DNA of 64,000 nt. It comes from Planctomycetota bacterium. GTDB taxonomy: Bacteria > Planctomycetota > GCA-002687715 > CAIWVZ01. The notes below the pieces were generated by a model, which worked only from the letters and a program-made list of their open reading frames with translations, was not told the origin of the DNA and did no database searches. Both the position numbers and the translations under genes were made by a program. Shown here in pieces: positions 16,684-57,752 of this stretch (the stretch's first letter is position 1; each line of letters begins with the position of its first letter). The stretch is from NCBI GenBank assembly GCA_044222185.1, contig JBGANV010000002.1, positions 256,001 through 320,000 of the forward strand. The letters run 5' to 3'.

Positions 16684-17913
16684 TCACATCCCCGATGAGC
16701 CAGTTCGATCGGCGTTCGTGTCGGAACCGGCGGCTGATTCCCGCACGAGTTGATAGGCGTCGCGGAACGGCAGGCCCTTTTCCACGACGAGGCGATAGGC
16801 CTTCTCGGCGGCATGAAGCGAGGGATCGATGGCCGCGCGCGTCTTCTCCGGAACGAACGAAATGCCCGCGACGGCATGGGCGAGGAGGCGCGCCGTGTCG
16901 CGAACGGCGTCGAGTCCACGGAACAGCGGCGCTTTGATCAGCTGGTAGTCGCGGTGGTAGCCAGACGTCATCTTCGTGGTGATCTGCATCACCTCGAACA
17001 AGGCCGTGACGGCGACGGCCGTACGTCCTCGGGCCAGTTCGAAGAGATCCGGGTTGCGCTTCTGGGGAAGCATCGACGACCCGGTCGTGAAAGCGTGCGG
17101 GAGCTTCACGAACCCGAACTCGGACGTGTTGAACAAACAGAGGTCCGCCGAAAGACGTCCCAGGTCCTGGCCCAACAGGGCGGCTTCGAACAATGCGGAC
17201 GCCTCCGCCTTCCCACGGGACAGCTGCACGGCCGTGACGGGCTCGTGAACCTCGGCGAACCCGAGCGTGCGAGCGGTCATCTGGCGGTCGAGGGTCAGCA
17301 CGGGAACGCCGTAACCCGCCGCCGATCCCAGCGGGTTCTTGTCGGCGCGGCGTGCGGCGAGCGCCAGCCCGGCCGCATCGTCCCGGATCTCCGACGCGAA
17401 ACCCCCGGCCCACAGTGCGACCGTCGACGGCATGGCGCGCTGCATGTGCGTGTATCCAGGCAGCGCCACGGCCCCCTGCCGCACGACCAGTCCGTCCAGC
17501 GCTGCGGCGACGTCGTTCGCCTCGCGGGCGAGCTCCGCGAGCGCCGCCTTCAGGAACAGGCGCACGGCCGCAAGGACCTGGTCGTTCCGCGATCGACCGA
17601 GGTGGATGCGGCGACCAGCTTCGCCGACCGCGGCGACGAGCCGATTCTCGAGCGCCGTGTGGCAGTCCTCGTCGGAAAGCGTGACGTGCCACTCGCCGCG
17701 TGCGTGCGATGCGGCGATGTCCGCGAGTGCACGGCTCAGTTTCTCGAGGTCCTCCGCGCTCAAGTACCCGGCCGCATTCAGCATGTCCGCGTGCGCGGCC
17801 GAAGCCTCGGCATCGAACGACACCAGTCGCTCATCGAGAACGTGATCCTCGCCCGCGGTGTACCGCAGGACGAGATCGTCGAGAGCCTCACCGCGATCCC
17901 AGAGCCGCGTCAT
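16684..17913 (-). CDS. argH: Argininosuccinate lyase
   Basis: 'EDCHTALE', 'GRSRNDQV', 'PGYTHMQRA' and the signature 'TGSSMLPQKRNPD'. Confidence 0.95.
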   Translation of the reverse strand: MTRLWDRGEALDDLVLRYTAGEDHVLDERLVSFDAEASAAHADMLNAAGYLSAEDLEKLSRALADIAASHARGEWHVTLSDEDCHTALENRLVAAVGEAGRRIHLGRSRNDQVLAAVRLFLKAALAELAREANDVAAALDGLVVRQGAVALPGYTHMQRAMPSTVALWAGGFASEIRDDAAGLALAARRADKNPLGSAAGYGVPVLTLDRQMTARTLGFAEVHEPVTAVQLSRGKAEASALFEAALLGQDLGRLSADLCLFNTSEFGFVKLPHAFTTGSSMLPQKRNPDLFELARGRTAVAVTALFEVMQITTKMTSGYHRDYQLIKAPLFRGLDAVRDTARLLAHAVAGISFVPEKTRAAIDPSLHAAEKAYRLVVEKGLPFRDAYQLVRESAAGSDTNADRTGSSGM

Positions 17914-18994
17914 CGCTTCGCTCCTGTCTCGCGAACTCGAGCGCGAGATGTTCATAGAAATGCGCACCCTCGATGATCTCCGATTCGAGGACGAATTCGT
18001 CGGGCGTGTGCGAACGCTCCGTCCTTCCCGGTCCGACCTTGATCGTGGGGATGCCTCGGAAGAACACCATGTCCGACAGCGTCCGCGATCCGAAAGTCTC
18101 GGATTCGGGGCGCGCGCGCCGCGCTGCCTGCACGAGGGGATGATCGGGACGGATCTCGCACGGCTTCAGCCGATCGGAGATCACGCGCACCTCCGCCGAA
18201 GTCGCCTGGCGCAGCCGTTGCACGAGAACCTCGTGCCCGGGCTCGGGATTGGTGCGGACGTCGAACACGCACGTGGCCTCGGCCGGGACCGTGTTGCGAG
18301 CCGATCCCGCGGCGAGGACCGTCGGCTCCGCCGTGACGTCACCGAGCATCTCGTGCGCCGAGCCCCAGTCGACGTCGTGGGTGCCGACGATGTCCGCGGC
18401 GAGGCGGCGGATCGGATTCTCGATCCCCAGCGTGCGCGCATTCGCGGCGTGACAGGCCTTCCCCGACCGCTTCAGCTCGACGATCAGGAGGCCCTTCTGC
18501 GCCACGGCGACGTCGAGCGCCGTCGGCTCTCCCACGACGGCCGCCGCCGGCGCGAGACCGCGATTGCGCAGCTCCGGCACGAGCATTTCGGCGCCCTTTC
18601 CCCCGGTCTCCTCCTCGCACGTCAACGCGAGCATCAACCGCACGTCGAGCGAGGCCTGGCGTTGCTGCAGTCGCAGGAACGCGGCGGTCATGGCGGCGAC
18701 CGAGGCCTTCGCGTCGTTGCTCCCCAGCCCGAAGACCTTGCCGTCTTCGGCGCGGACGTCGTAGGGATCACGTGTCCATGCGGGGGTCGGCGGCACGGTA
18801 TCGAGGTGACTGTTCATGCAGAGGATCGGCCCGCGGCCGATCATGGCGAAGACGTTGTCACCGACCCGGTGAACGTCGACCCCGCGCTCGCCGAGCCATC
18901 CCTGCACGAAATCGCAGATCGCGCGCTCCTGGTGAGAGACCGAGGGCGTCCTCACCAGCGCTCGATGGAATGCCAGAAGCTCCGCGTCGTTCAT
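17888..18994 (-). CDS. argE: M20 N-acyl-ornithine/N-acyl-citrulline deacylase (ArgE/ArgE')
   Basis: 'NSHLDTV', 'GLGSNDAK', 'CEEE', 'VGEPT' and 'GPGRTERSHTPDE'; lies inside the arg operon. Confidence 0.85.
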   Translation of the reverse strand: MNDAELLAFHRALVRTPSVSHQERAICDFVQGWLGERGVDVHRVGDNVFAMIGRGPILCMNSHLDTVPPTPAWTRDPYDVRAEDGKVFGLGSNDAKASVAAMTAAFLRLQQRQASLDVRLMLALTCEEETGGKGAEMLVPELRNRGLAPAAAVVGEPTALDVAVAQKGLLIVELKRSGKACHAANARTLGIENPIRRLAADIVGTHDVDWGSAHEMLGDVTAEPTVLAAGSARNTVPAEATCVFDVRTNPEPGHEVLVQRLRQATSAEVRVISDRLKPCEIRPDHPLVQAARRARPESETFGSRTLSDMVFFRGIPTIKVGPGRTERSHTPDEFVLESEIIEGAHFYEHLALEFARQERSDDAALGSR

Positions 18995-19968
18995 CCCCGC
19001 GTGCTTTCGGCGGATTTCAGGATCGCTTCCACGCGACCGTTACCCGTCTGCTCGGCCGGAAGCAGGTCACGCATCTCCATGACGATGAGCGTCCCCGCGC
19101 CTTCGTTCGTGAAGATCTCGACGAGAAGACTGTCCGGACCACCTCCGATCACGTGAACCCGCTTCACACCGCCGTAGAGCGCCTCCTTCGCCGCGTTCGC
19201 CTTGGGAAGCATGCCCGCGTCGAGCGCGCCGCGCTCGAGCAGCGTGTTCAACCCACGCACGTCCGTGTACGAGATCAGCGAGGAGGGATCGTTCTTGTCC
19301 TCGAGGATGCCGGGGGCCTCCTGGAGGAACACGAGTTTCTCGGCGCCCATCTCCCGGGCAAGCGTGGCTGCAACCGTGTCGGCGTTGACGTTCAGGATGT
19401 TGCCCTGGTCGTCGGCGGTGAGCGGGCTCACGACGGGCACGTACCCCGCGTCGAGCAGGCGCGTCAGCACGGACGCATCCACGGTGACGATGTCGCCCAC
19501 GTGACCGAAGTCGACGGTCGTGCGAACCTCGCCTGCGATCTTCACGCGCGGCGGGCGGCGGCGGGCGCGGATCAGCCCTGCATCGACTCCCGAGACTCCG
19601 ACGGTGGGCAGTCCCGCCGCGCGCGCCGCCGCGAGGATCGCCGTGTTGATGGCGCCGTTCATGGTCATGACGGCGACTTCGAGCGTCTTCTCGTCCGTCA
19701 CGCGCCGGCCGTCGACGAACAGGGTCTCGATGCCGAGCTTGGATGAGAGCGCGGTCGTCTGCGGCCCACCACCGTGGACGATGACGATGCGGACGCCGAG
19801 TTCTCGCAGGATGCTGACCTGCTCGGCGATGCTGCGCAGCCCGGCTGCGTCTCCACAAACGGCGCCGCCCATCTTCACGACGAACGTGCGGCCCTTGTAC
19901 AGGCGGATGTAGGGCAGTGCGCGCTTCAGCGCGTCCATCGTGGCGTTGCGATCATGAACCGAACTCAT
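18991..19968 (-). CDS. argB: N-acylglutamate kinase
   Basis: 'FVVKMGG', 'VHGGGPQ', 'GRRVTD', 'LNVNAD' and 'GMLPK'; AAAGGA RBS. There is no fused GNAT domain. Confidence 0.95.
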   Translation of the reverse strand: MSSVHDRNATMDALKRALPYIRLYKGRTFVVKMGGAVCGDAAGLRSIAEQVSILRELGVRIVIVHGGGPQTTALSSKLGIETLFVDGRRVTDEKTLEVAVMTMNGAINTAILAAARAAGLPTVGVSGVDAGLIRARRRPPRVKIAGEVRTTVDFGHVGDIVTVDASVLTRLLDAGYVPVVSPLTADDQGNILNVNADTVAATLAREMGAEKLVFLQEAPGILEDKNDPSSLISYTDVRGLNTLLERGALDAGMLPKANAAKEALYGGVKRVHVIGGGPDSLLVEIFTNEGAGTLIVMEMRDLLPAEQTGNGRVEAILKSAESTRG

Positions 19969-20058: not shown

Positions 20059-21075
20059 TCACGTGCTCCACTCCGGACGCGTCAGCATTTCATGAAGAAG
20101 GGCCTTCTGCGCATGCAGGCGGTTGCCCGCCTGCCGCACGACGATGCTTCGCGGCCCATCGAGAACCTGATCCGTCACCTTCACGTTGCGTCGAACGGGG
20201 AGGCAGTGCATGAACTTCGCGCCCGGCGCCGACTCGGCGAACCACGGCTCGTCGACGCACCAGCCCTTGAGCGGGGCGCGAAGGGCCGCCTCCTCCGCGT
20301 TCTGGCCGTAGCGCGACGGCGCCGTCCACGACTTGGTGTAGAGGACGTGCGCGCCCCGCATCGCGGCGCGGCGGTCGTCGGTCTCCTGCACCGAACCGCC
20401 GGAGGCGAGCGCGAGCGCACGGGCGTCGGCCATCACCTCATCCGGAAGGGCGAAGCCCTCGGGACGAAGCACCGTGACGTTCATTCCGCGCCGCGCCGCC
20501 ATGCGCACCGTCGACGACGCGACGGCGAGGGGCAGCTGCTTGGGATGCCACGCCCACGACAGCACGAACTTCCCGCCCTGCGCCGGAATCCCAACGTCGT
20601 CCAGGGTCTTCCAGTCGGCGAGCGACTGGCACGGATGCGTGATGGCGGATTCGAGGTTGATGAACGGGCGGGGTGAGAGCTCGGCCATGGCGTGGATCAC
20701 GGGATCGGCCAGATCCTCCGCCAGATCCTTGCCGCGGGCGAAGCACCGCGCCGCGAGGACGTCGCAGTACTGCGACAGAACGGGTACGGCCTCGCGGATG
20801 TGCTCCGCGGCGTCGCCGTCCATCACGACGCCACGACGCGTCTCGAGCTGCCAGGACCCCTGGCCCGGTGTGATCACGAACGACCCGCCGCCGAGCTGGA
20901 CGATCGCCGCCTGCATGGAGGCGAGCGTGCGCAGCGACGGATTCATGAACAGGAGTCCGACGACGCGATTGCGCCCGACGTCGCTGCGAGGCGCGCGCTC
21001 GAGCGCCTGCGCGCGTGCAAGCACCGCCGCCAGCTCATCCCGATCGAGATCCGATAGATCGATGAACTTCTTCAC
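20059..21075 (-). CDS. argF: N-acyl-ornithine transcarbamylase (ArgF', AOTCase/SOTCase family)
   Basis: 'NPSLRT', 'W.LE...G.VMDG...EH', 'HPCQ', 'WAWHPK.LP' and 'FMHCLPVRRN' mark the acyl-ornithine transcarbamylases rather than classical OTC. Confidence 0.92.
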   Translation of the reverse strand: MKKFIDLSDLDRDELAAVLARAQALERAPRSDVGRNRVVGLLFMNPSLRTLASMQAAIVQLGGGSFVITPGQGSWQLETRRGVVMDGDAAEHIREAVPVLSQYCDVLAARCFARGKDLAEDLADPVIHAMAELSPRPFINLESAITHPCQSLADWKTLDDVGIPAQGGKFVLSWAWHPKQLPLAVASSTVRMAARRGMNVTVLRPEGFALPDEVMADARALALASGGSVQETDDRRAAMRGAHVLYTKSWTAPSRYGQNAEEAALRAPLKGWCVDEPWFAESAPGAKFMHCLPVRRNVKVTDQVLDGPRSIVVRQAGNRLHAQKALLHEMLTRPEWST

Positions 21076-22241
21076 GCCGGGATTTCCTTCAACGCCGCGA
21101 GCAAGCGATCGACGTGATCGTCCTCGAGGATCAACGGGGGGAGCAGACGCACGATGTTCGGGTCGTTGGCACCGCCGGCGAGGATGCCGCGCTTGCGCAG
21201 CTCGCCGAGTATCTCCTTGGCCGGCCGCTTCGTGCGCAGACCGAGCAGATAGCCCATGCCCTGCGTCGCGACGACGGGACCACCGATCGACTCGGAGAGG
21301 ATCCGCTTCGAGAGGCGACGCACCCGAGGCAGGAGCTGCTCCTCATCGATCGTGCGCAGCACGACGTCGACGAGCGCGCACGCCAGGGGCCCACCGCCGA
21401 ACGTCGTGCCGAGGTCGCCCTTCTTGACGATCGACGCGAGCGCATCGCCGAGCATCACGGCTGCCACCGGGAACCCGCCCGCGAGCCCCTTGGCGGTCGC
21501 GAGGATGTCCGGCGTGACGCCGTACCCTTGCGCCGCGAACGGGTACCCGCTTCGTCCGACTCCGCACTGCACCTCGTCGAAGATCAGGACCGCGCCGCGC
21601 TGGCGCGTGATTTCACGTGAGGCGTGCACGAATTCCTGGGAGAGCGAACGAGCGCCGGCGAGGCCCTGCACGGGCTCGAAGATCACGGCCGCCACGTCGT
21701 CGCCCACCGCCTCGTCGAGACCATGAACGTCGTCGAGGTCGACCGTCGTCGTCGCGAACGGCTTGTTCGGGAAGGCGTACCAGGCCTGGTTGCCATCCGT
21801 GATCGCCGCGGCGGCGGCCGTCCGTCCGTGGAATGCACCCTTCAACGCGACGACGCGCGGGCGCTTCGTCGCCAGGAACGCGACGCGAAGCGCGTTCTCG
21901 ATGGCCTCGGCGCCGGAATTCACGAAGAAGACCTTGGAGAATCCCGCCGGTCCGAAATTGATGAGCGCCGTCGCGGCCTTCTGGCGTACGGCGAGGTCGA
22001 CGGCGTTGGTCTGGAAGAACAACCTCCGGGCCTGCGCATCGAGCGTCGCGCAGAGCTTCGGATGGTCGTATCCCAGAAGCGCCACGGCGTGACCTCCATA
22101 GAAGTCCAGGTAGCGGCGCCCGTCGCGGGCCGTGATCCACACACCCTCGCCGCTGACGGGTTCCACGTCGATCTGGTGGAAGACGTCCAGCAGCGCCGAT
22201 GCCTTCGCGGGTTCCTTCTCCATTTGCGTTCCTGTCGTCAT
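21072..22241 (-). CDS. argD: Acyl-ornithine aminotransferase (class III PLP)
   Basis: 'NSGAEAIENA', 'FHGRT', 'EPVQG', 'FDEVQCG', 'AKGLAGG' and 'GTTFGG'. Confidence 0.92.
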   Translation of the reverse strand: MTTGTQMEKEPAKASALLDVFHQIDVEPVSGEGVWITARDGRRYLDFYGGHAVALLGYDHPKLCATLDAQARRLFFQTNAVDLAVRQKAATALINFGPAGFSKVFFVNSGAEAIENALRVAFLATKRPRVVALKGAFHGRTAAAAAITDGNQAWYAFPNKPFATTTVDLDDVHGLDEAVGDDVAAVIFEPVQGLAGARSLSQEFVHASREITRQRGAVLIFDEVQCGVGRSGYPFAAQGYGVTPDILATAKGLAGGFPVAAVMLGDALASIVKKGDLGTTFGGGPLACALVDVVLRTIDEEQLLPRVRRLSKRILSESIGGPVVATQGMGYLLGLRTKRPAKEILGELRKRGILAGGANDPNIVRLLPPLILEDDHVDRLLAALKEIPA

Positions 22242-22248
22242 GTCTCTC

Positions 22249-23325
22249 TCAAGCCCAACCGAGGCCGGGCAGTTTCAAACCGCACGAGTCGTCCAGGTCG
22301 AACAGCCTGTTCATCCACTGCACTCCGCCACCAGCCGCGCCCTTCGTCAGGTTGTCCACGACGGACGTGACGACGAGCGTTCGACCCCTCGTCGCGACAC
22401 CGATGCGAACGCGATTGGTACCGACGACCTCCGTGAGCTTGGGCGCAATCGTGCTGGCGCGGACGAAGCCCTCGCCATAGAACGCGTTGACCGCCGACGC
22501 GAGGTCCTTCGCATTCGCATCGCGCTTCAGCGTCATCCTGAGCGTCGCGTGGATGCCGCGCACGAAGGGGCCGGAGTGCGGCACGAACTGCACGTCCGGC
22601 TCCGCACCGGGACGCGCCGCGCCGATCAGCATGCGCATCTCGGCTTCGTGCCGGTGCCCGAGCGGGTTGTACGCGTACAGGTTCCCGCTGCGCTCCGGGT
22701 GATGGGTGTTCTGCGCCGGCGTGCGGCCACTTCCGGAGCTTCCCGTCACGGCGGCCACGAAGACGTCGGCCTCGACGAGGTCTGCGGCGAAGAACGGAAA
22801 GGCCGCGACGGTCACCGCCGTGGTGAAGCAGCCGGGCTGCGTCGCGTGTGCCGGCGGTCTCCCGCGGAAGTGCTCGGGCACGGCGCAGACGAACTGAGGC
22901 AGTCGCCCCGGGGCCTCGTGCTCGTGGGCGTAGATGGCCGCATACCGCGCGGGATCTCGGAAGCGGAAGTCCGCGGACAGATCCACGGCCTTCGCGTCCG
23001 CTCGCGCCGCTTCGGCTGCGGACAACACACGGTCGGCGAGCGACGCCGTGGCGCCGTGCGGCGTGGCGAAGAACAGTCCCACGGGCCTGCCCGAATGGAA
23101 CAGGGACGCGTGCTCGTCCTGCGACCGGAACGTCAGCCCGTCGACGGTCGTGCCGGCGAGATGGGGAAACGACGCCGTCACGGATTCGCCGCCCTGGGAT
23201 GTCGAGAACACGGCCGCGACACGGAAGCGCGGATGCAGCGAGAGGATCCGCAGCAGCTCGCCGGCCACGTAGCCCTGTCCACCGAACACGGCGACGTCGA
23301 TGAGTTCGCGGTCAGGCGCCGTCAC
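22249..23325 (-). CDS. argC: N-acyl-gamma-glutamyl-phosphate reductase
   Basis: 'GGQGYVAGEL', 'ATPHG', 'DLSADFR', catalytic 'PGCF', 'HRHEAE' and 'DNLTKGAAG'. Confidence 0.95.
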   Translation of the reverse strand: MTAPDRELIDVAVFGGQGYVAGELLRILSLHPRFRVAAVFSTSQGGESVTASFPHLAGTTVDGLTFRSQDEHASLFHSGRPVGLFFATPHGATASLADRVLSAAEAARADAKAVDLSADFRFRDPARYAAIYAHEHEAPGRLPQFVCAVPEHFRGRPPAHATQPGCFTTAVTVAAFPFFAADLVEADVFVAAVTGSSGSGRTPAQNTHHPERSGNLYAYNPLGHRHEAEMRMLIGAARPGAEPDVQFVPHSGPFVRGIHATLRMTLKRDANAKDLASAVNAFYGEGFVRASTIAPKLTEVVGTNRVRIGVATRGRTLVVTSVVDNLTKGAAGGGVQWMNRLFDLDDSCGLKLPGLGWA

Positions 23326-24406
23326 CCGAGCCTCCCAGGTTCTGGACCGAAGCCACCGACTTCATGGCCGACGTGCCGAGCACGACGGTGACGAGGCCGG
23401 GCGCATCCGACCGAGCGTTGTGAGCGGGCGTAGACGTTTCGCGTTCGACGAGCTTGGTGCCCGCGCTGTTGTCCGTCGCTGGACCGGTGACGACGGTCGT
23501 TTGGAGATCGTGGCGCTCGCGGAGCAGCCGCACGCCGCCCCACGCCGCCACCGGGTCGTTCGCCGCGAGCACGACGGCGCTGAACGTCTTGCGAACGGGC
23601 ACGTCGTCGAGAATGGCGTCGACTCCGTAGAGCCCCAGAAGTCCGTCACCCAGCTCGAGGACGATGACGTCCGGGCGCTCCGCGGCGAGCTTCGTGAGCA
23701 GCGTGCGCGCGGCACGGGGCGCGGACTCGGCGGTCGTCGTGACGATGCCGAGATCGGTGAAGATCATGGTGCGACGGGCGCCCGCATCCTCCATCGCCAG
23801 GATGTCACGACGAAGCGACACGCCCGTGGTCTTGCCCGCGGCGACGCGGAATCCGCGATGCGTGAGCTCCTGAACGAGCGCGCACGCCGCGGCCGTCTTG
23901 CCGGCGTTCATGCACGACCCGACGACGGCGATCACGGGAATGCCCTGGACGTCCAGGCGATCTTCGAGGTGAATGGCGCCCTGTGTGATGTGCGCCGGCA
24001 CTCCGATGCGCTCGCCGAGGTAGGGGAAATGGAGAACCTGCCCCAGCACCTCGCAGACGAAGGGCTGGCCGAGATCGGGGTTGACGCTGTCGCAGATCCC
24101 GATGACGCCGCCGAGGTTCAGGATGTTCACCTTGTCGCCCGGCTTCAGCGATTCGGGAAGGTGACCCGAATAGCCGAAAAGCGCCTTGCGGTGTCCCAAC
24201 GCGCCGGCGACGACGTCGCCCGGTTTGATCTGCGAGAAGCGGCCCGACGGCAGCTCGAGCTGGTTGTAGGTGCTCTTCGACGTCAACACGCGAATGGCGA
24301 CGACGCTCCCTTCCGTGCACGTGATGTCCGCGGAGACGCGGACTTCGCGCGACAGCTTGCAGTTCATCGTCACCGAACCGATCTTGTCGATCAGGATCGT
24401 CTTCAC
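23312..24406 (-). CDS. DUF1611/DgcN-like P-loop protein; candidate alternative N-acylglutamate synthase
   Basis: P-loop-like 'VVGSCMNAGKT', 'AGKTTG', 'RDIL.M.DAGA' and 'ELGDGLLG'. The GTG start overlaps the argG stop (GTGA) and the stop overlaps the argC start. Confidence 0.75.
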   Translation of the reverse strand: MKTILIDKIGSVTMNCKLSREVRVSADITCTEGSVVAIRVLTSKSTYNQLELPSGRFSQIKPGDVVAGALGHRKALFGYSGHLPESLKPGDKVNILNLGGVIGICDSVNPDLGQPFVCEVLGQVLHFPYLGERIGVPAHITQGAIHLEDRLDVQGIPVIAVVGSCMNAGKTAAACALVQELTHRGFRVAAGKTTGVSLRRDILAMEDAGARRTMIFTDLGIVTTTAESAPRAARTLLTKLAAERPDVIVLELGDGLLGLYGVDAILDDVPVRKTFSAVVLAANDPVAAWGGVRLLRERHDLQTTVVTGPATDNSAGTKLVERETSTPAHNARSDAPGLVTVVLGTSAMKSVASVQNLGGSGDGA

Positions 24407-25608
24407 GCCTGCGCTCCCTTCGCCCGTTGATGCAACATCCCGGGCAGCGCCAGAAGCCGCGAGAACCCGCGGGCATCGCTGGCCGTCCATTCACCCGTCG
24501 CCTCGCCGTACACGCCGCGGGATGCGGCCTTGAGCGAGTGGGGCGACGCCACTCCCTCCACGAAGCACGAGCCGGTGCGCAGACGGAACGTCACGGTGCC
24601 CGTCACGCGCTCCTGCGAACGAATGAACAGCGCTTCGGCATCGCGGCAGGCGGGTTCGAGGAATTGCCCTTCGTGGATCCAATCGCCGTAGATGGCGGCG
24701 ACCGTGTCCTTCAAACGCTGCTGGCGGCCGGTGAGCGTGAGTTTCTCCAGCTCGCGGTGCGTTTGGATGAGGATCGACGCGGCGGGCGCCTCGAACGCCA
24801 CACGGCCCTTGAGGCCGAAGATCGTGTCACCCAGGTGGATCCCGCGGCCGACGCCGAACGGCGCCGCGAGCGCGTCCAGTCGTTCCACGAGCGGAACGGC
24901 GCTCAATCGCGTGCCGTCGACCGCCATGGGAACGCCGGCGTCGAAGGAGACGGTGTGCACCTCCGATGCACGCGGCCGATCGAAGGCGCCGCGCGTCAGC
25001 ACCCACGCATCCTCGGGGAGCGTGGCGATGGTGTCCGTCGTCTCCTTCCCGCCGATCGTGCAGCCCCACAATCCGCGGTTGACCGAGTACGCGGCCTTCT
25101 CGGCGTTCACGGGATAGCCGTGGGATTGGAGGAACTTCACCTCCTGCTCCCGTGACAGGCCCAGGTCGCGAATGGGCGCGATGATGTCGAGTTCCGGAGC
25201 GAGTGTCCGCAATGCGACCTCGAACCGGACCTGGTCGTTGCCCGCCGCGGTGCATCCGTGCGCGATGGCTTTCGCGCCGAGCTGTCGCGCGACGTCAGCG
25301 ACGACCCGGGCCTGGAGTCCGCGCTCGGCGCCGACGCACAGCGGATACATGTTGCCCCGCAGCACGTTGCCCATGACGAGAAACCGGAGCGTTTCGTTGA
25401 AGAACGACTCGCGTCCATCCACGAGGATGTGTTTCTTCGCACCGAGCGCATTCGACTTGCGCTCGAGTTCGCGGCGCGCGTCGTCATCGAGGCCGCCCGT
25501 GTCCACGGTGACGGTGATGACGTCCGTGCTGTATTGCTCCTTCAGCCAGGGCACGCAGTACGACGTGTCGAGCCCGCCGCTGAAGGCGAGGACGATCGGA
25601 TCACTCAT
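24403..25608 (-). CDS. argG: Argininosuccinate synthase
   Basis: 'LAFSGGLDTS', 'AHGCTAAGNDQVRF' and 'GLKGRVAFEAP'. Confidence 0.96.
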   Translation of the reverse strand: MSDPIVLAFSGGLDTSYCVPWLKEQYSTDVITVTVDTGGLDDDARRELERKSNALGAKKHILVDGRESFFNETLRFLVMGNVLRGNMYPLCVGAERGLQARVVADVARQLGAKAIAHGCTAAGNDQVRFEVALRTLAPELDIIAPIRDLGLSREQEVKFLQSHGYPVNAEKAAYSVNRGLWGCTIGGKETTDTIATLPEDAWVLTRGAFDRPRASEVHTVSFDAGVPMAVDGTRLSAVPLVERLDALAAPFGVGRGIHLGDTIFGLKGRVAFEAPAASILIQTHRELEKLTLTGRQQRLKDTVAAIYGDWIHEGQFLEPACRDAEALFIRSQERVTGTVTFRLRTGSCFVEGVASPHSLKAASRGVYGEATGEWTASDARGFSRLLALPGMLHQRAKGAQA

Positions 25609-26074
25609 CGGTTCTCTTCTCCATCCACTGCTGGAGCCGCGCGTGCACGATGGCCTGATCGCGTCGGCTCTGAGTGGCAACGAACAACGTGTCGTCGCCG
25701 GCGACCGTGCCGACGACCTCGCTCCAACGTGCGTTGTCGACCGCGAGGCCGACGGCGGAGGCGCCTCCCGGCGTCGTCTGGACGACGAGGAGATGCGGAC
25801 CCGCAACCTTCACGGCGACGACGTGGCCGAAGACATCGGCTCCGTCCGTCGTCGCGGGCGGTGTCAGCCCGAGCTGATCGGGCAGGATGTAATGGCCGTC
25901 CACCTTCGCGACGCGCATCTCGCGAAGATCGCGTGAAACGCTCGACTGGGTGGCCGAGAGGCCCAGCTGTCGCAGACGCGCCAGCAGCTCCGTCTGGTTC
26001 GCGATGGATTCATCACGAAGCAGCGTGCGGATTGCAGCTTGTCGCTCTTGCCAGATCTCGGCCTTGACGGGCAT
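25601..26074 (-). CDS. argR: Arginine repressor
   Basis: 'RQAAI', 'NQTEL', 'ATQSSVSRDL', 'TTPG.A' and 'GTVAGDDT'. Confidence 0.96.
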   Translation of the reverse strand: MPVKAEIWQERQAAIRTLLRDESIANQTELLARLRQLGLSATQSSVSRDLREMRVAKVDGHYILPDQLGLTPPATTDGADVFGHVVAVKVAGPHLLVVQTTPGGASAVGLAVDNARWSEVVGTVAGDDTLFVATQSRRDQAIVHARLQQWMEKRTDE

Positions 26075-26202: not shown

Positions 26203-27434
26203 CGGAACGCCACGCTCGGCGTGGCCGGTTGGCGAGACCGCCGGGCTCTCAATCGCGGCGAGGTGGGCCGGACGACGCGCCCGCTCTGGCACCGCACGCG
26301 GCGGGTTCCCGGCAGGGCGGGAGCCCTGCCGTCCAGCCGCGTGAAACGCGGCGCTCCGGAACGCCACGCTCGGCGTGGCCAGTTGGCGAGACCGCCGGGC
26401 TCGCCGGGGAATCGCCCGCGAGGTCTCAATCGCGGCGAGGTGGGCCGGACGACGCGCCCGCTCTGGCATCGCACGCGGCGGGTTCCCGGCAGGGCCGGAG
26501 CCCTGCCGTCCAGCCGCGTGAAACGCGGCGCTCCGGAGCGCCACGCTCGGCGTGGCCGGTTGGCGAGACCTCCGGGCTCGCCGGGGAATCGCCCGCGAGG
26601 TCTCGATCGCGGCGAGGTGTGCCGGACGACGCGCCCGCTCTGGCATCGCACGCGGCGAGTTCCCGGCAGGGCGGGAGCCCTGCCGTCCAGCCGCGTGAAA
26701 CGCGGCGCTCCGGAACGCCACGCTCCGCGTGGCCGGTTGGCGAGACCGCCGGGCTCGCCGGGGAATCACCCACGAGGTCTCAATCGCGGCGAGGTTGCCG
26801 CGCGACGCGCCCGCTCTGGCATCGCACTCGGCGGGTTCCCGGCAGGGCGGGAGCCCTGCCATCCAGCCGCGTGAAACGCGGCGCTCCGGAACGCCACGCT
26901 CGGCGTGGCCGGTTGGCGAGACCTCCGGGCTCGCCGGGGAATCGCCCGCGAGGTCTCAATCGCGGCGAGGTTGCCGCGCGACGCGCCCGCTCTGGCATCG
27001 CACGCGGCGAGTTCCCGGCAGGGCGGGAGCCCTGCCGTCCAGCCGCGTGAAACGCGGCGCTCCGGAACGCCACGCTCCGCGTGGCCGGTTGGCGAGACCT
27101 CCGGGCTGCCGGGGAATCGCCCGCGAGGTCTCAATCGCGGCTGCCGCGCGACGCGCCCGCTCTGGCATCGCACGCGGCGGTTCCCGGCAGGGCGGGACGA
27201 GCCGCGTGGTCTCGGAACGCCACGCTCCGCGTGGTTGGCGAGACCGCCGGGCTCGCCGGGGATCGCCCGCGAGGTCTCGATCGCGGCGAGGTGGGCCGGA
27301 CGACGCGCCCGCGCTGGCATCGCACGCGGCGGGTTCCCGGCAGGGCTGGAGCCCTGCCGTCCAGCCGCGTGAAACGCGGCGCTCCGGAACGCCACGCTCC
27401 GCGTGGCCGGTCGGCGAGACCGCCGGGCTCGCCG
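26203..27434. repeat. Tandem array of about 177-bp REPIN/BIME-like units (7 units plus a partial 8th)
   Basis: Unit starts (CGGAA/GCGCCACG) at 26203, 26357, 26534, 26711, 26887, 27063, 27213 and 27385. Each unit carries four GC-rich hairpins. Confidence 0.92.
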
Positions 27435-31915: not shown

Positions 31916-32325
31916 GCGGGTTCCCGGCAGGGCTGGAGCCCTGCCATCCAGCCGCGTGAAACGCGGCGTTCCGGAACGCCACGCTCCGCGTGGCCGGTTG
32001 GCGAGACCTCCGGGCTCGCCGGGGAATCACCCGCGAGGTCTCAATCGCGGCAAGGTGGGCCGGACGACGCGCCCGCTCTGGCATCGCACGCGGCGGGTTC
32101 CCGGCAGGGCTGGAGCCCTGCCGTCCAGCCGCGTGAAACGCGGCGCTCCGGAACGCCACGATCCGCGTGGCCGGTTGGCGAGACCTCCGGGCTCGCCGGG
32201 GAATCACCCACGAGGTCTCAATCGCGGCGAGGTGGGCCGGACGACGCGCCCGCGCTGGCATCGCACGCGGCGGGTTCCCGGCAGGGCCGGAGCCCTGCCG
32301 TCCAGCCGCGTGAAACGCGGCGCTC
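31916..32325. repeat. Second array of the 177-bp REPIN-like unit (about 2.3 copies)
   Basis: Unit starts at 31972 and 32149. Near-identical to the 26.2-27.4 kb array and in the same orientation. Confidence 0.92.
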
Positions 32326-33435
32326 CTATTTCTGCGGGCGCGTCGCGGGGGGTACGCGCGGCGGCGCGGTGCGGGACAACGCTTGGAGGAATGCAACGAG
32401 AGAGTCGACGTCGTCGTCCGTGAGATCGACCGGGCGGAGCAGCGGATCGAGTGCCGGATTCGCCCCGCCGCCGCGGGCATAGAACGTGACGACGTCGCGC
32501 AGCGTCGCGAGGCTGCCGTCGTGCATGTACGGCGGCGACAGGGCGACACCGCGAAGCGACGGCGTCTTGAACCGGCCCAGGTCGTCGGCCGACCGGGTGA
32601 TCGCGGCGCGGCCGGGCTCGGGCCGGCCGTCGATGACGCCCACGCCAGTGTTGTGGAAGCTCTCGTCGGTGAAGTTCGCGCCCGAGTGGCAACGCCAGCA
32701 ACCGCCCTTGCTCTCGTAGATCCACAGCCCGGTCCGTTCAGGGCGCGTGAGCGCTTCCACCTCACCGATGCGGAAGCGATCGATCGGGCTGTCGCCGATC
32801 AGCAACGTCCTAACGTGCGTCGCGAGCGCGTGAGCCACGCCAGCCCCATCGGGCGGCCCCCCGAACGCGGTCTCGAACGCCGCCACGTACTCCGGGTTCT
32901 CGCCGATTCTCCGGACGACCCCCGCCAGGCTGAATCCCATCTCGTCCTCGGCCGCGATCGGAGCGACGACCTGCTCCTCCAGCGTGCTCGCCCGGCCATC
33001 CCAGAAGTAACGGACACCGAATGCGCGATTGAATAGCGACGGCGCATTGCGATGCGTCGTGCGCCCGTTCACGCCGCGCGAATGCGGGCGCGAATCCGCG
33101 AACCCATGATCGGGCAAGTGACACGATCGACACGCGATGGAGCCGTCCACCGACAGGGCCGGGTCGTCGAAAAGCCTCCGGCCCAATTCGGCCTTCTCGA
33201 GCGACCAGGGATTGGTCGGTGGGAACTCCAATGCCGCCGCAAGTCCGAAAGGCGGGGCGGGTTCGCCCTTGGCTGTCGCGGGGCGCGAATCCTGCGCGGG
33301 CATTCCGCCGCAGATCGACATCACCGTCACATAGACGAGGATCCGCGAATTCGCGGAGCGCGGCGCTGACCGACTGACCGCACGGTGCTCGTCCGTCGAT
33401 GGCGTGGACGCCCGCGCATGGGTGGATACAGGCAT
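32326..33435 (-). CDS. Diheme cytochrome c peroxidase superfamily protein (MauG/BthA/MbnH-like); start uncertain
   Basis: CRSCH and CWRCH heme motifs, 'YFWDGRA', 'FKTPSLR' and 'PYMHDGS...VVTFY'. Confidence 0.9.
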   Translation of the reverse strand: MPVSTHARASTPSTDEHRAVSRSAPRSANSRILVYVTVMSICGGMPAQDSRPATAKGEPAPPFGLAAALEFPPTNPWSLEKAELGRRLFDDPALSVDGSIACRSCHLPDHGFADSRPHSRGVNGRTTHRNAPSLFNRAFGVRYFWDGRASTLEEQVVAPIAAEDEMGFSLAGVVRRIGENPEYVAAFETAFGGPPDGAGVAHALATHVRTLLIGDSPIDRFRIGEVEALTRPERTGLWIYESKGGCWRCHSGANFTDESFHNTGVGVIDGRPEPGRAAITRSADDLGRFKTPSLRGVALSPPYMHDGSLATLRDVVTFYARGGGANPALDPLLRPVDLTDDDVDSLVAFLQALSRTAPPRVPPATRPQK

Positions 33436-57236: not shown

Positions 57237-57752
57237 TCAGAGCGTGCGCTGGTAGAAGGTGTCGCAGGCGCCGTGGCCCGTCTCACCGCGCGGCGAACAG
57301 ATCGAAGCAAACCCGCGCCGCTCGTAGAGCTTCCGCGCGGCCGTCATGTTGTGCCTGGTCTCGAGGTACATCGTCCGATAGCCGACACGCCGGGCGGCTT
57401 CGATGCAGAGGTCGATCAGCTTGCTGCCGTTTCCGAACCCGCGGCCCTCGGCGAGCAGATACATCTTGCGCAACTCGCAGATTCCGTCCCGCGGATCGGA
57501 TCCGGCGAGCGGGCCGAATCCCGCGCCCCCGACGACACGGGCGTGACCGTCGCCGTCGACGCGCTCGAGCACCCAGTAGCTCGCATCGCCGCCCGGATAG
57601 GCGCGCGACATGTAATCCAGCTCGGCGTCACTGCTCGCGAACCCAGGGCCCACGCAGGCGAACTCCGCCAGCGTCTGCCTCACGATCGCACCGATTGCGA
57701 CGTCGTCGGTCGCGTCGATCGGCCGGATCCGCCACGTCACGTCCTTCGCCAT
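57237..57752 (-). CDS. GNAT N-acetyltransferase (YjgM-like)
   Basis: 'CELRKMYL', 'RGFGNG', 'YLET' and 'LYERRGF...TGHGACD'. Confidence 0.88.
   Translation of the reverse strand: MAKDVTWRIRPIDATDDVAIGAIVRQTLAEFACVGPGFASSDAELDYMSRAYPGGDASYWVLERVDGDGHARVVGGAGFGPLAGSDPRDGICELRKMYLLAEGRGFGNGSKLIDLCIEAARRVGYRTMYLETRHNMTAARKLYERRGFASICSPRGETGHGACDTFYQRTL

Follow-up and report, generated by a model that had tools for sequence, protein, structure and literature searches.

In the arginine operon described here a single gene is without assignment, and the only step of the pathway that is missing is the first one. The product of this gene, called X in the following, is a P-loop protein that probably performs this step, as judged from comparative genomics. 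The best explanation overall is that X is the step-1 enzyme of an N-succinyl linear pathway and works by a mechanism similar to that of dethiobiotin synthetase, which we propose tentatively.

An arginine operon without a known first enzyme

The window, which is the whole stretch of 64,000 nucleotides that was analysed, belongs to a contig of a Planctomycetota bacterium. The gene of X is located at 23312-24406 on the minus strand and its translation comprises 364 residues followed by a stop codon, with the motif VVGSCMNAGKT at residues 161-171. The coordinates, the length, and the motif had been stated correctly by the sequence-only reading. The overlaps that it described with both neighbouring genes are also present: the start codon of X, GTG at 24406, shares the sequence GTGA with the argG stop codon, and argC, which starts with GTG at 23325, overlaps the end of X (stop codon 23312-23314) by 14 bp. 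An AGGGAG-like Shine-Dalgarno sequence is found about 7 nt upstream of the GTG. This GTG, and not the upstream ATG at 24490, is regarded as the true start because the homologues start at the same residue (alignment A2). The open reading frame is real, because 7466 of the 8000 scored candidates are homologues of X at E<=1e-3, with 69-100% identity for the top 120. The plus strand of the same region is open as well, but this reading was rejected as the mirror of a high-GC gene, the conserved product being that of the minus strand. A scan for promoters and terminators did not rise above chance level.

The genes are arranged on the minus strand in the order argR-argG-X-argC-argD-argF'-argB-argE-argH (Table 1). 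ArgB consists of the AA_kinase domain only and does not contain a GNAT domain, and searches with domain and family models confirmed that the operon has neither ArgA nor ArgJ nor an ArgB-GNAT fusion. The same is true for argA and argJ at the level of the genome (7.08 Mb in 16 contigs, 93.8% complete), in which neither was detected: the ArgJ model PF01960 has no match, and the model for classical ArgA, TIGR01890, matches only the kinase domain of ArgB. An ornithine carbamoyltransferase above the cut-off is not found in the genome either. None of the nine genes with GNAT domains in the genome belongs to the operon, and the one closest to it (57237-57752) is generic, although a short GNAT-type synthase may still be among them. 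The Xanthomonas-type NAT domain PF04768 has no match in the genome, but its control also matched nowhere. ArgA is built from a kinase-like and a GNAT domain, and the N-succinylglutamate synthase of Bacteroides is of the GNAT type; two papers on Bacteroides and the gut reportedly deal with this GNAT enzyme. X itself contains no GNAT, kinase-like, or ArgJ domain at E<=10 in Pfam and NCBIfam. With ArgA, the short GNAT synthases, the Bacteroides enzyme, and ArgJ it shares the proposed place in the pathway, while the folds are unrelated.

Table 1. Genes of the arginine operon and features of X in the window
Feature	Position	Strand	Evidence
argR	25601..26074	-	PF02863, 64.7 bits
argG, argininosuccinate synthase, ATG start	24403..25608	-	TIGR00032, 304.8 bits (cut-off 268.2)
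X, candidate step-1 enzyme (N-succinyl-L-glutamate formation)	23312..24406	-	translation, homologues, AF2 model
X, N-terminal all-beta domain, residues 1 to ~150	23957..24406	-	domain model pLDDT 95.6
X, C-terminal BioD-like (SIMIBI) P-loop domain, residues ~153-345	23372..23950	-	VIA-align, hhalign
X, P-loop GSCMNAGKT, residues 163-171	23894..23920	-	A1 (64 sequences), motif counts
X, invariant K192, aligned to second lysine of dethiobiotin synthetase	23831..23833	-	3fgn profile alignment, hhalign against BioD
X, invariant E251 (ELGDG), aligned to BioD VEGxGG glutamate	23654..23656	-	A1, hhalign
argC	22249..23325	-	TIGR01850, 264 bits (cut-off 233.6)
argD-like class-III N-acylornithine aminotransferase	21072..22241	-	PF00202, 293 bits; NCBIfam argD equivalog models below cut-offs
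argF', N-acylornithine carbamoyltransferase; Ala90 codon 20806-20808	20059..21075	-	NF003384, 381.6 bits (cut-off 288)
argB, N-acylglutamate kinase; start uncertain, ORF open to 20028	18991..19968	-	TIGR00761, 218.8 bits (cut-off 151.3)
M20 ArgE/DapE-type deacylase, presumed N-acylcitrulline hydrolase	17888..18994	-	PF01546 and PF07687; NCBIfam models below cut-offs
argH; start uncertain, ATG 17913 possible	16684..17967	-	TIGR00838, 285.8 bits (cut-off 279.5)

Gene context and distribution of the X family

Homologues of X account for 923 cluster representatives in a 50%-identity protein library (E<=1e-10), and a scan of GTDB revealed relatives in at least 527 species-level genomes. All source names seen for them are 'hypothetical protein'. 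As far as sequence similarity defines it, the family is large and unnamed. The association with arginine genes is not particular to the window. Among the best 80 of the 527 loci, which represent at least five phyla, arg genes surround X in all 80 and are always encoded on the same strand, the neighbours being argC in 74, argG and argR in 72 each, argB in 64, and argF' in 59 loci. A gene for an M20 deacylase is present in 29 of these 80 loci and is missing from most gammaproteobacterial ones. In addition, X was found joined to ArgG, ArgC, or ArgD in 16 proteins, each represented by a single sequence on a single contig, and to an AA_kinase domain in the 626-residue protein P0194. These were rejected as functional evidence. 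We read them as frameshifts or merges during gene calling because the neighbouring genes overlap, and they support the gene order only.

The distribution was analysed in 151 genomes of the window's phylum, leaving a weaker tier of paralogues (25-33% identity, no Pfam match, no arg context) out of the orthologue counts. A strong orthologue of X is encoded in 48 of these genomes. ArgJ accompanies it in one of the 48 (G104) and is found in 54 of the 103 genomes without X, and ArgF' above the cut-off is present in 44 of the 48 compared to 10 of the 103. Classical ArgA is absent from all 151. At the level of families, 26 contain X alone and 26 ArgJ alone, and three are mixed. Fisher tests gave p = 8e-11 and 1e-23, but these values are overstated since related genomes are not independent, and the counts are to be preferred. 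The mutual exclusion of X and ArgJ could also merely reflect that X travels with the ArgF' operon. Furthermore, it means little by itself that ArgA and ArgJ are missing, because 49 of the 151 genomes have neither these nor X, and other solutions or auxotrophy must be common. A tblastn search with X did not reveal a homologue in the ArgF' regions of six genomes of the phylum that have ArgF' but neither X nor ArgJ. Six ORFs without assignment were examined in the arg clusters of three of these genomes (G028, G060, and G085), of which five have no Pfam match and one is a radical-SAM protein; two of them were compared to the X profile and are unrelated (hhalign probability <1%). The proposal of the sequence-only reading that X is a non-GNAT synthase for step 1 is thus supported, in terms of comparative genomics, by the slot in the operon, the conserved arg context, and the near-exclusion with ArgJ, while the family label attached to that proposal has to be given up (see below).

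Relation to an earlier prediction

The sequence-only reading referred to a similar proposal for homologues elsewhere, and this was right. Appendix 2 of GapMind 2026 predicts the family of X as the missing ArgA, with proteins of the ACG33_RS14135 type as N-succinylglutamate synthase, and this is given as a prediction only (bioRxiv 10.1101/2024.10.14.618325). As far as the accessible text goes, the same function was predicted there independently. X is regarded as a member of this family, judged through proxy sequences from Steroidobacteraceae: a homologue from a Steroidobacteraceae MAG (L035:8001-9080) is 59% identical to X over 360 residues with 442 bits (self-score about 788), and many Steroidobacteraceae loci show 57-61% identity. 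The name Steroidobacter denitrificans does not appear among the 120 X matches listed. X has the same operon slot as ACG33_RS14135, the same absence of ArgA and ArgJ, and the same succinyl-type ArgF'. The two differ in phylum, the nearest named matches of X being Planctomycetota, and in that the X cluster includes an M20 ArgE-type gene whereas S. denitrificans, according to the accessible part of the GapMind paper, has neither ArgA nor ArgE (bioRxiv 10.1101/2024.10.14.618325). Literature searches did not find a paper joining DUF1611 and arginine, and among the matches listed for N-succinylglutamate synthase GapMind 2026 is the only one that deals with new or alternative enzymes by its title or abstract.

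Domain architecture and relatives of X

The AF2 model of X (pLDDT 96.1, pTM 0.93) shows two domains. The N-terminal beta domain has conserved polar residues (S11, E51, R73) and the invariant P84 (alignment A1). Compared to 48,161 PDB chains with VIA-align, its best Z is 3.1 and none reaches Z>=5; Foldseek finds nothing at E<=0.001 (best E 0.44), and an Atlas search gave no named lead (best score 0.86). For the modelled domain no solved relative was found in these searches, which does not imply that the fold is new.

The C-terminal domain superimposes with VIA-align Z 15-17.4 on DUF1611, CTP synthase, dethiobiotin synthetase, HypB, and SRP GTPases. In profile comparisons X is closer to BioD, with an hhalign probability of 95.5% (E 1.5e-8) versus 57.8% (E 1e-4) for DUF1611, and its top profile match in the PDB is the dethiobiotin synthetase 3fgn (E 2.6e-4). 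The relation is visible by profile-profile comparison only: a search of the PDB with the sequence alone gave nothing significant (best E 0.31), and neither BioD nor AAA_26 models match at E<=10. X and BioD share the GKT loop, the second lysine, and a Walker-B-like glutamate (K170, T171, K192, and E251 in X). In the P-loop G169 and K170 are invariant and T171 is found in at least 90% of the 64 sequences of alignment A1. In the motif counts GK-T/S is present in 55 of 61 motif matches of X and the second lysine in 57 of 61, and in BioD both are present in 18 of 18. BioD and the synthetase domain of CTP synthase align to X with Z 16.2-16.9. Both enzymes phosphorylate a carbonyl or carboxylate group and then add an amine, which is the type of chemistry required when the acyl group of an N-acyl amino acid is to come from a free acid. 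X differs from BioD by the additional N-terminal domain of 150 residues and by its arg instead of bio gene context. That X is a divergent BioD was ruled out, because a true BioD is encoded alongside X in six of the 13 X-carrying genomes among G000-G040; in G000 there is no match to bioD at E<=1e-15.

The label DUF1611/DgcN given to X by the sequence-only reading fails. The match to PF07755 scores 15.7 bits (E 0.01) at a gathering score of 25 and is confined to 38 residues around the Walker A motif (156-193). PF17396, the Rossmann-like N-terminal domain of DUF1611, does not match X, whose model has the all-beta domain instead, and the profile is nearer to BioD. The fold of X resembles that of DgcN (Z 16.2) no more than those of CTP synthase and dethiobiotin synthetase (Z 16.6-16.9). 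A separate true DUF1611 gene is present on contig 7 of the genome (197.8 bits). It adjoins a gene of the enolase superfamily, the usual DgcA-type racemase partner of DUF1611, whereas X is located between argG and argC. True DUF1611 and X co-occur in G000, G002, and G022. The Atlas automatically names the nearest clusters of X 'DUF1611 domain-containing protein'. A survey reports dgcN in Woeseiales in the accessible part of its text (PMC12363236); that these calls are members of the X family is speculation.

ATP or acyl-CoA

The P-loop domains of DgcN and other DUF1611 proteins (7XRJ, 2OBN, 2G0T) have the same general fold as that of X (rmsd 2.7-3.0 over 180-186 residues) and head the VIA-align ranking (2obn Z 17.4, 2g0t 16.9, 7xrj 16.2). 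It could therefore be possible that X is an acyl-CoA-dependent N-succinyltransferase like DgcN, whose P-loop would hold the phosphates of succinyl-CoA and not ATP. GapMind 2026 and the sequence-only reading both imply this variant, and we consider it somewhat less likely than an ATP-dependent reaction. The context evidence for step 1 fits it equally well, the hhalign alignment of X to DUF1611 spans 240 columns, and the accessible GapMind text gives a Foldseek match of ACG33_RS14135 to 7XRJ with E 1.4e-7 (bioRxiv 10.1101/2024.10.14.618325). Only one characterised relative, DgcN, acts on the amine of glutamate, which is also the supposed substrate of X, and as DgcN is called an acetyltransferase (title of PDB entry 7xrj; bioRxiv 10.1101/2024.10.14.618325), this speaks against an ATP-dependent reaction. 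The fold scores are alike for DUF1611 (Z 16.2-17.4) and for CTP synthase, BioD, and HypB (Z 15.9-16.9) and do not separate these groups. However, the DUF1611 match stays below its threshold, an unrelated beta domain replaces the Rossmann-like one, and DUF1611 chains are missing both from the PDB sequence search and from the 42 profile matches. Foldseek with the whole model retrieved P-loop NTPases only, 7xrj not being among the matches listed; it surfaced only on structural re-alignment with VIA-align, at rank 11. In addition, DUF1611 has GK-M/R in 14 of 15 sequences and no second lysine in 13 of 15, in contrast to GKT and K192 in X. The ATP mechanism is favoured because X is nearer to BioD by profile and has the GKT loop and the second lysine that DUF1611 has lost. 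If X catalyses step 1, dependence on ATP seems slightly more probable than dependence on acyl-CoA, and we narrowly favour the ligation of succinate and glutamate by ATP over the transfer from succinyl-CoA.

A different view would give X an auxiliary part in the succinyl-type pathway as an NTPase, such as that of a regulator, an assembly factor, or a factor inserting metal, while a short GNAT protein encoded elsewhere in the genome, which has nine GNAT genes, makes N-acylglutamate. The closest folds of X do include HypB, MobB-like, and SRP-type NTPases, and the 49 genomes without X, ArgJ, and ArgA manage otherwise. Nevertheless we regard such a role as quite unlikely. None of the GNAT genes belongs to the operon, a metallochaperone for the M20 deacylase would not be expected in gammaproteobacterial clusters without this enzyme, and the 69-82% identity across phyla together with the strict either/or with ArgJ suits a core enzyme better.

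The acyl group

The sequence-only reading left open whether acetyl or succinyl is attached, and the carbamoyltransferase next to X allows a prediction. The accessible GapMind text cites Shi et al. 2007 for the statement that ArgF' is succinyl-specific when position 92 (Xanthomonas numbering) is A, P, S, or V (bioRxiv 10.1101/2024.10.14.618325). Alignments to Xanthomonas and Bacteroides chains place Ala90 of the window's ArgF' at this position, which is A, S, and V in the Xanthomonas chains 3l02, 3l05, and 3l06 and P or E in the Bacteroides chains. The ArgF' of the window is predicted to be of the succinyl type. Of 59 ArgF' genes linked to X, 52 encode A here, three V, three S, and one Q. Provided that X does perform step 1, its product is most likely succinylated. 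It is improbable that X instead attaches acetyl or some other acyl residue, or that its product is another N-modified glutamate: the NCBIfam name of the neighbour, N-acetylornithine carbamoyltransferase, and the single Gln would agree with this, but the other 58 linked enzymes, and that of the window, have A, V, or S, and the acetyl-type Glu is found in none.

We know of no amide-bond hydrolase with a P-loop fold, which weighs against X filling another missing step such as that of the N-acylcitrulline deacylase. Such a role is very improbable: the absence of ArgE besides ArgA from S. denitrificans in the accessible GapMind text and of the M20 gene from most gammaproteobacterial loci would leave room for it, but X and the M20 deacylase share an operon in the window and in the 29 loci mentioned.

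Proposed mechanism and implications

From the observed gene order, distribution, fold, and conserved residues we infer a reaction of X, the two substrates of this reaction, and what each residue does in it. X would succinylate the alpha-amino group of L-glutamate, and the N-succinyl-L-glutamate would pass to ArgB. Mg-ATP would be bound by the P-loop domain through K170 and T171, and a carboxylate of free succinate would be phosphorylated with the assistance of K192 and E251. The P-loop Thr and the second Lys have the roles assumed here for X in dethiobiotin synthetase. The amine of glutamate, held with the help of the N-terminal beta domain, would then attack the succinyl phosphate, giving N-succinylglutamate, ADP, and phosphate. 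The succinate freed later by the M20 deacylase could be reused.

Perhaps X is even an ATP-dependent succinate-L-glutamate ligase and the founder of a new class of enzymes, combining a BioD-like P-loop domain with a beta fold not seen in solved structures and starting arginine synthesis without acyl-CoA. Together with the deacylase it would, in thousands of species, run a succinate cycle at the expense of ATP, which would correspond to the recycling of acetyl by ArgJ. Carriers would then be found in Planctomycetota, Acidobacteriota, Myxococcota, Gammaproteobacteria, and other groups, and the ATP reading, if true, would mean a new route to N-acyl amino acids and a new protein domain. Homology-based labels such as 'dgcN' or 'DUF1611' on members of the X family may be wrong. 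In a large set of environmental bacteria step 1 of the arginine pathway lacks an annotation, and pathway predictors may score the carriers of X as arginine auxotrophs.

A candidate first-step gene in the arginine operon

X, a P-loop protein encoded in the arginine operon of the window, probably supplies the first step of arginine synthesis. Translation and the matches of its neighbours to Pfam and NCBIfam models confirm that it is a real gene within this operon, as the sequence-only reading had claimed. Its GTG start overlaps the argG stop in the tetranucleotide GTGA, its stop lies 14 bp within argC, and the start residue is the same in homologues. The order on the minus strand, by Pfam and NCBIfam, is argR, argG, X, argC, an argD-like aminotransferase gene, argF' (for N-acylornithine carbamoyltransferase), argB, a gene for an M20 deacylase of ArgE/DapE type, and argH. 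ArgF' scores 381.6 bits against NF003384 (cut-off 288), and Pfam and NCBIfam place no GNAT domain in ArgB. In the whole genome (7.08 Mb, 16 contigs, 93.8% complete) ArgJ was not found, the sole match of the classical ArgA model was the kinase domain of ArgB, and no ornithine carbamoyltransferase exceeded its cut-off. The observation made from the sequence alone is upheld.

Two arrays of a 177-bp unit, the first directly upstream of argR and the second 5 kb away, yield long spurious ORFs on either strand. The window also encodes a generic GNAT acetyltransferase 33 kb from the arg operon, one of nine GNAT-domain matches in the genome.

Coordinates of the genes and repeats discussed in the text
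Feature	Position	Strand	Remarks
X	window 23312-24406	-	364 residues + stop; VVGSCMNAGKT at residues 161-171
177-bp tandem repeat, first array	window 26247-27197		5.4 copies, 95% match
177-bp tandem repeat, second array	window 31916-32326		2.3 copies, 97% match
GNAT acetyltransferase	window 57237-57752	-	top NCBIfam matches RimI and ArsN1, both far under cut-offs
DUF1611 protein and following enolase-superfamily gene, contig 7 of the same genome	L001:1072-3203		DUF1611_N 84.6 bits, DUF1611_C 197.8 bits
Sister family of X, copy in G135	L084:1509-2537
Sister family of X, copy in G115	L085:1567-2595

A published prediction for the family

The sequence-only reading was right that a similar proposal had been made for homologues. 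In its account of the family, GapMind 2026 (bioRxiv 10.1101/2024.10.14.618325) predicts an N-succinylglutamate synthase from context and comparison, the grounds being operon position, exclusion with ArgA, a weak Foldseek match of a family protein to the D-glutamate N-acetyltransferase DgcN (7XRJ, E 1.4e-7, rmsd 5.6), and linked ArgF' proteins with a succinyl-type residue. A Steroidobacteraceae homologue from an arg cluster of this kind shares 59% identity with X over 360 residues, and on the strength of this proxy for the reference protein ACG33_RS14135 X is assigned to the predicted family. The function proposed for X is a reasonable prediction that had been anticipated in print; the family label DUF1611/DgcN attached to it is incorrect in detail.

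Distribution of X and its arg-gene context

Among 151 genomes drawn across the phylum, which are related to one another, 48 encode a strong full-length X orthologue (at least 212 bits, 39-100% identity). ArgJ exceeds its cut-off in 55 genomes, comprising one of the 48 X carriers and 54 of the 103 genomes without X, while ArgF' does so in 44 of the 48 carriers versus 10 of the 103 others. In 29 of these 44 genomes the ArgF' gene and X share a contig and are at most about 4 kb apart. Classical ArgA is found in none of the 151 genomes, and 49 have neither X nor ArgJ. By a hand count of taxonomic families, 26 have only X, 26 only ArgJ, and three are mixed. That X travels with the ArgF' operon could be enough to explain the exclusion of X and ArgJ.

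The sole sampled genome with both, G104, carries an argR-X-argB cluster (L088, G104:C165). Because its 12.3-Mb assembly is 87% complete with 3% contamination, this could reflect a mixed bin or true redundancy. Six genomes encode ArgF' without X, ArgJ or ArgA (G144, G065, G028, G060, G085, G098; L125-L130), and tblastn found no X homologue in their fetched ArgF' regions. The unassigned ORFs in the arg clusters of G028, G060 and G085 comprise five without a Pfam match and one radical-SAM protein; two of the unassigned ORFs were compared with the X profile and are unrelated. A sister family of about 340 residues, 25-33% identical to X (L084-L087), has no Pfam match, and no arg gene was detected by tblastn in the 4 kb fetched around each of these four copies. 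ArgJ is present in three of the source genomes (G135, G115 and G007, for L084-L086) and absent from the fourth (G094, for L087).

The family is large. Of 8000 candidates scored, 7466 are relatives of X at E<=1e-3, and the best 120 of these are 69-100% identical and, where the source gives a name, called 'hypothetical protein'. A 50%-identity library contributes 1449 matching cluster representatives at E<=1e-3, of which 923 remain at E<=1e-10 and 190 at E<=1e-30. A scan with one genome per species gave at least 527 relatives among 600 candidate stretches. The best-scoring 80 of these loci, which are thus biased to close relatives of X, comprise by a hand count from record titles 43 from Gammaproteobacteria or Pseudomonadota (including many Steroidobacteraceae and Woeseiaceae), 22 from Acidobacteriota, seven from Planctomycetota, six from Myxococcota or Deltaproteobacteria, one from Fimbriimonadaceae and one unclassified. 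In all 80, tblastn with the nine window proteins found same-strand arg genes around X. These are argC (74), argG (72), argR (72), argB (64), argF' (59), argD (55), argH (52) and the M20 gene (29); contig ends truncate many of the loci. Among these 80 loci (L004-L083), copies from Myxococcota and Acidobacteriota MAGs share 71-75% identity with X, against only 39-65% for many orthologues in the sample of its own phylum, which suggests that the whole arg operon may have moved between phyla.

The acyl group

The window ArgF' aligns without gaps to Xanthomonas chains, and its Ala90 falls in the only column that differs among 3l02, 3l05 and 3l06 (A, S, V); Bacteroides chains have P there (1js1, 2fg6) or E (2g7m). 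The position decides between acetyl and succinyl substrates according to Shi et al. 2007, as cited in GapMind (bioRxiv 10.1101/2024.10.14.618325). The 59 X-linked ArgF' genes encode A in 52 cases, V in three, S in three, Q in one and E in none. Because of Ala90, and of A, V or S in 58 of the 59 linked proteins, the pathway is predicted to run on succinylated intermediates.

Relation to DUF1611 and BioD

X proved to be DUF1611/DgcN-like only remotely. It reaches 15.7 bits against Pfam DUF1611 (cut-off 25), over 38 P-loop residues only, and 24.6 bits against MobB (cut-off 26.6). A true DUF1611 protein is encoded on contig 7 of the same genome, directly followed by an enolase-superfamily MR_MLE gene, whereas X lies in the arg operon; the contig-7 genes look like a DgcN/DgcA-type D-glutamate pair separate from X. 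The AlphaFold model of X (pLDDT 96.1, pTM 0.93) has an all-beta N-terminal domain followed by the P-loop domain. Among re-aligned Foldseek candidates, all spanning residues about 153-356, DUF1611 chains come top (2obn Z 17.4, 2g0t 16.9, 7xrj 16.2), on a par with CTP synthase (16.9), dethiobiotin synthetase (16.6) and HypB (15.9). A profile of 64 family members has dethiobiotin synthetase 3fgn as its top PDB match (E 2.6e-4), and no DUF1611 chain is among its 42 PDB matches. With alignments of 15 DUF1611 and 18 BioD (dethiobiotin synthetase) sequences from the phylum, hhalign gave 95.5% (E 1.5e-8) for X and BioD versus 57.8% (E 1e-4) for X and DUF1611, and 96.0% for DUF1611 and BioD. The motif counts set the three families apart, the GKT loop and second lysine being common to X and BioD but lost in DUF1611. 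G169, K170, K192, E251 and D284 are invariant in the X-family alignment. No bioD match (TIGR00347, E<=1e-15) was found in the genome of the window.

Motif residues in the three families
Family	GK then T or S	Second lysine some 22 residues downstream
X family	55/61 motif matches	57/61
BioD	18/18	18/18
DUF1611	1/15 (M or R in 14/15)	2/15

Proposed mechanism

In enzymes of the BioD and CTP synthase kind, an oxygen of a carbonyl or carboxylate group is phosphorylated before an amine is added. The residues common to X and BioD and lost in DUF1611 indicate that X may use Mg-ATP. If X catalyses the first step, an ATP-dependent ligase is narrowly favoured over transfer from succinyl-CoA, which the published analogy to DgcN would imply and which has somewhat less than an even chance. 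As an ATP-dependent ligase, X would join free succinate to glutamate by BioD-type chemistry, and the succinate freed by the deacylase could be reused. We infer both the substrates and all residue roles of X.

The N-terminal domain modelled alone (pLDDT 95.6) gave no Foldseek match at E<=0.001, and against 48,161 representative chains its best Z was 3.1, with none reaching 5. These searches found no relative, which does not by itself prove a new fold.

To the published prediction the present analysis adds a domain without a solved relative, a case in which all other arginine steps are encoded in the operon, an independent replication in another phylum, and sequence-based support for a mechanism like that of BioD, which may depend on ATP.
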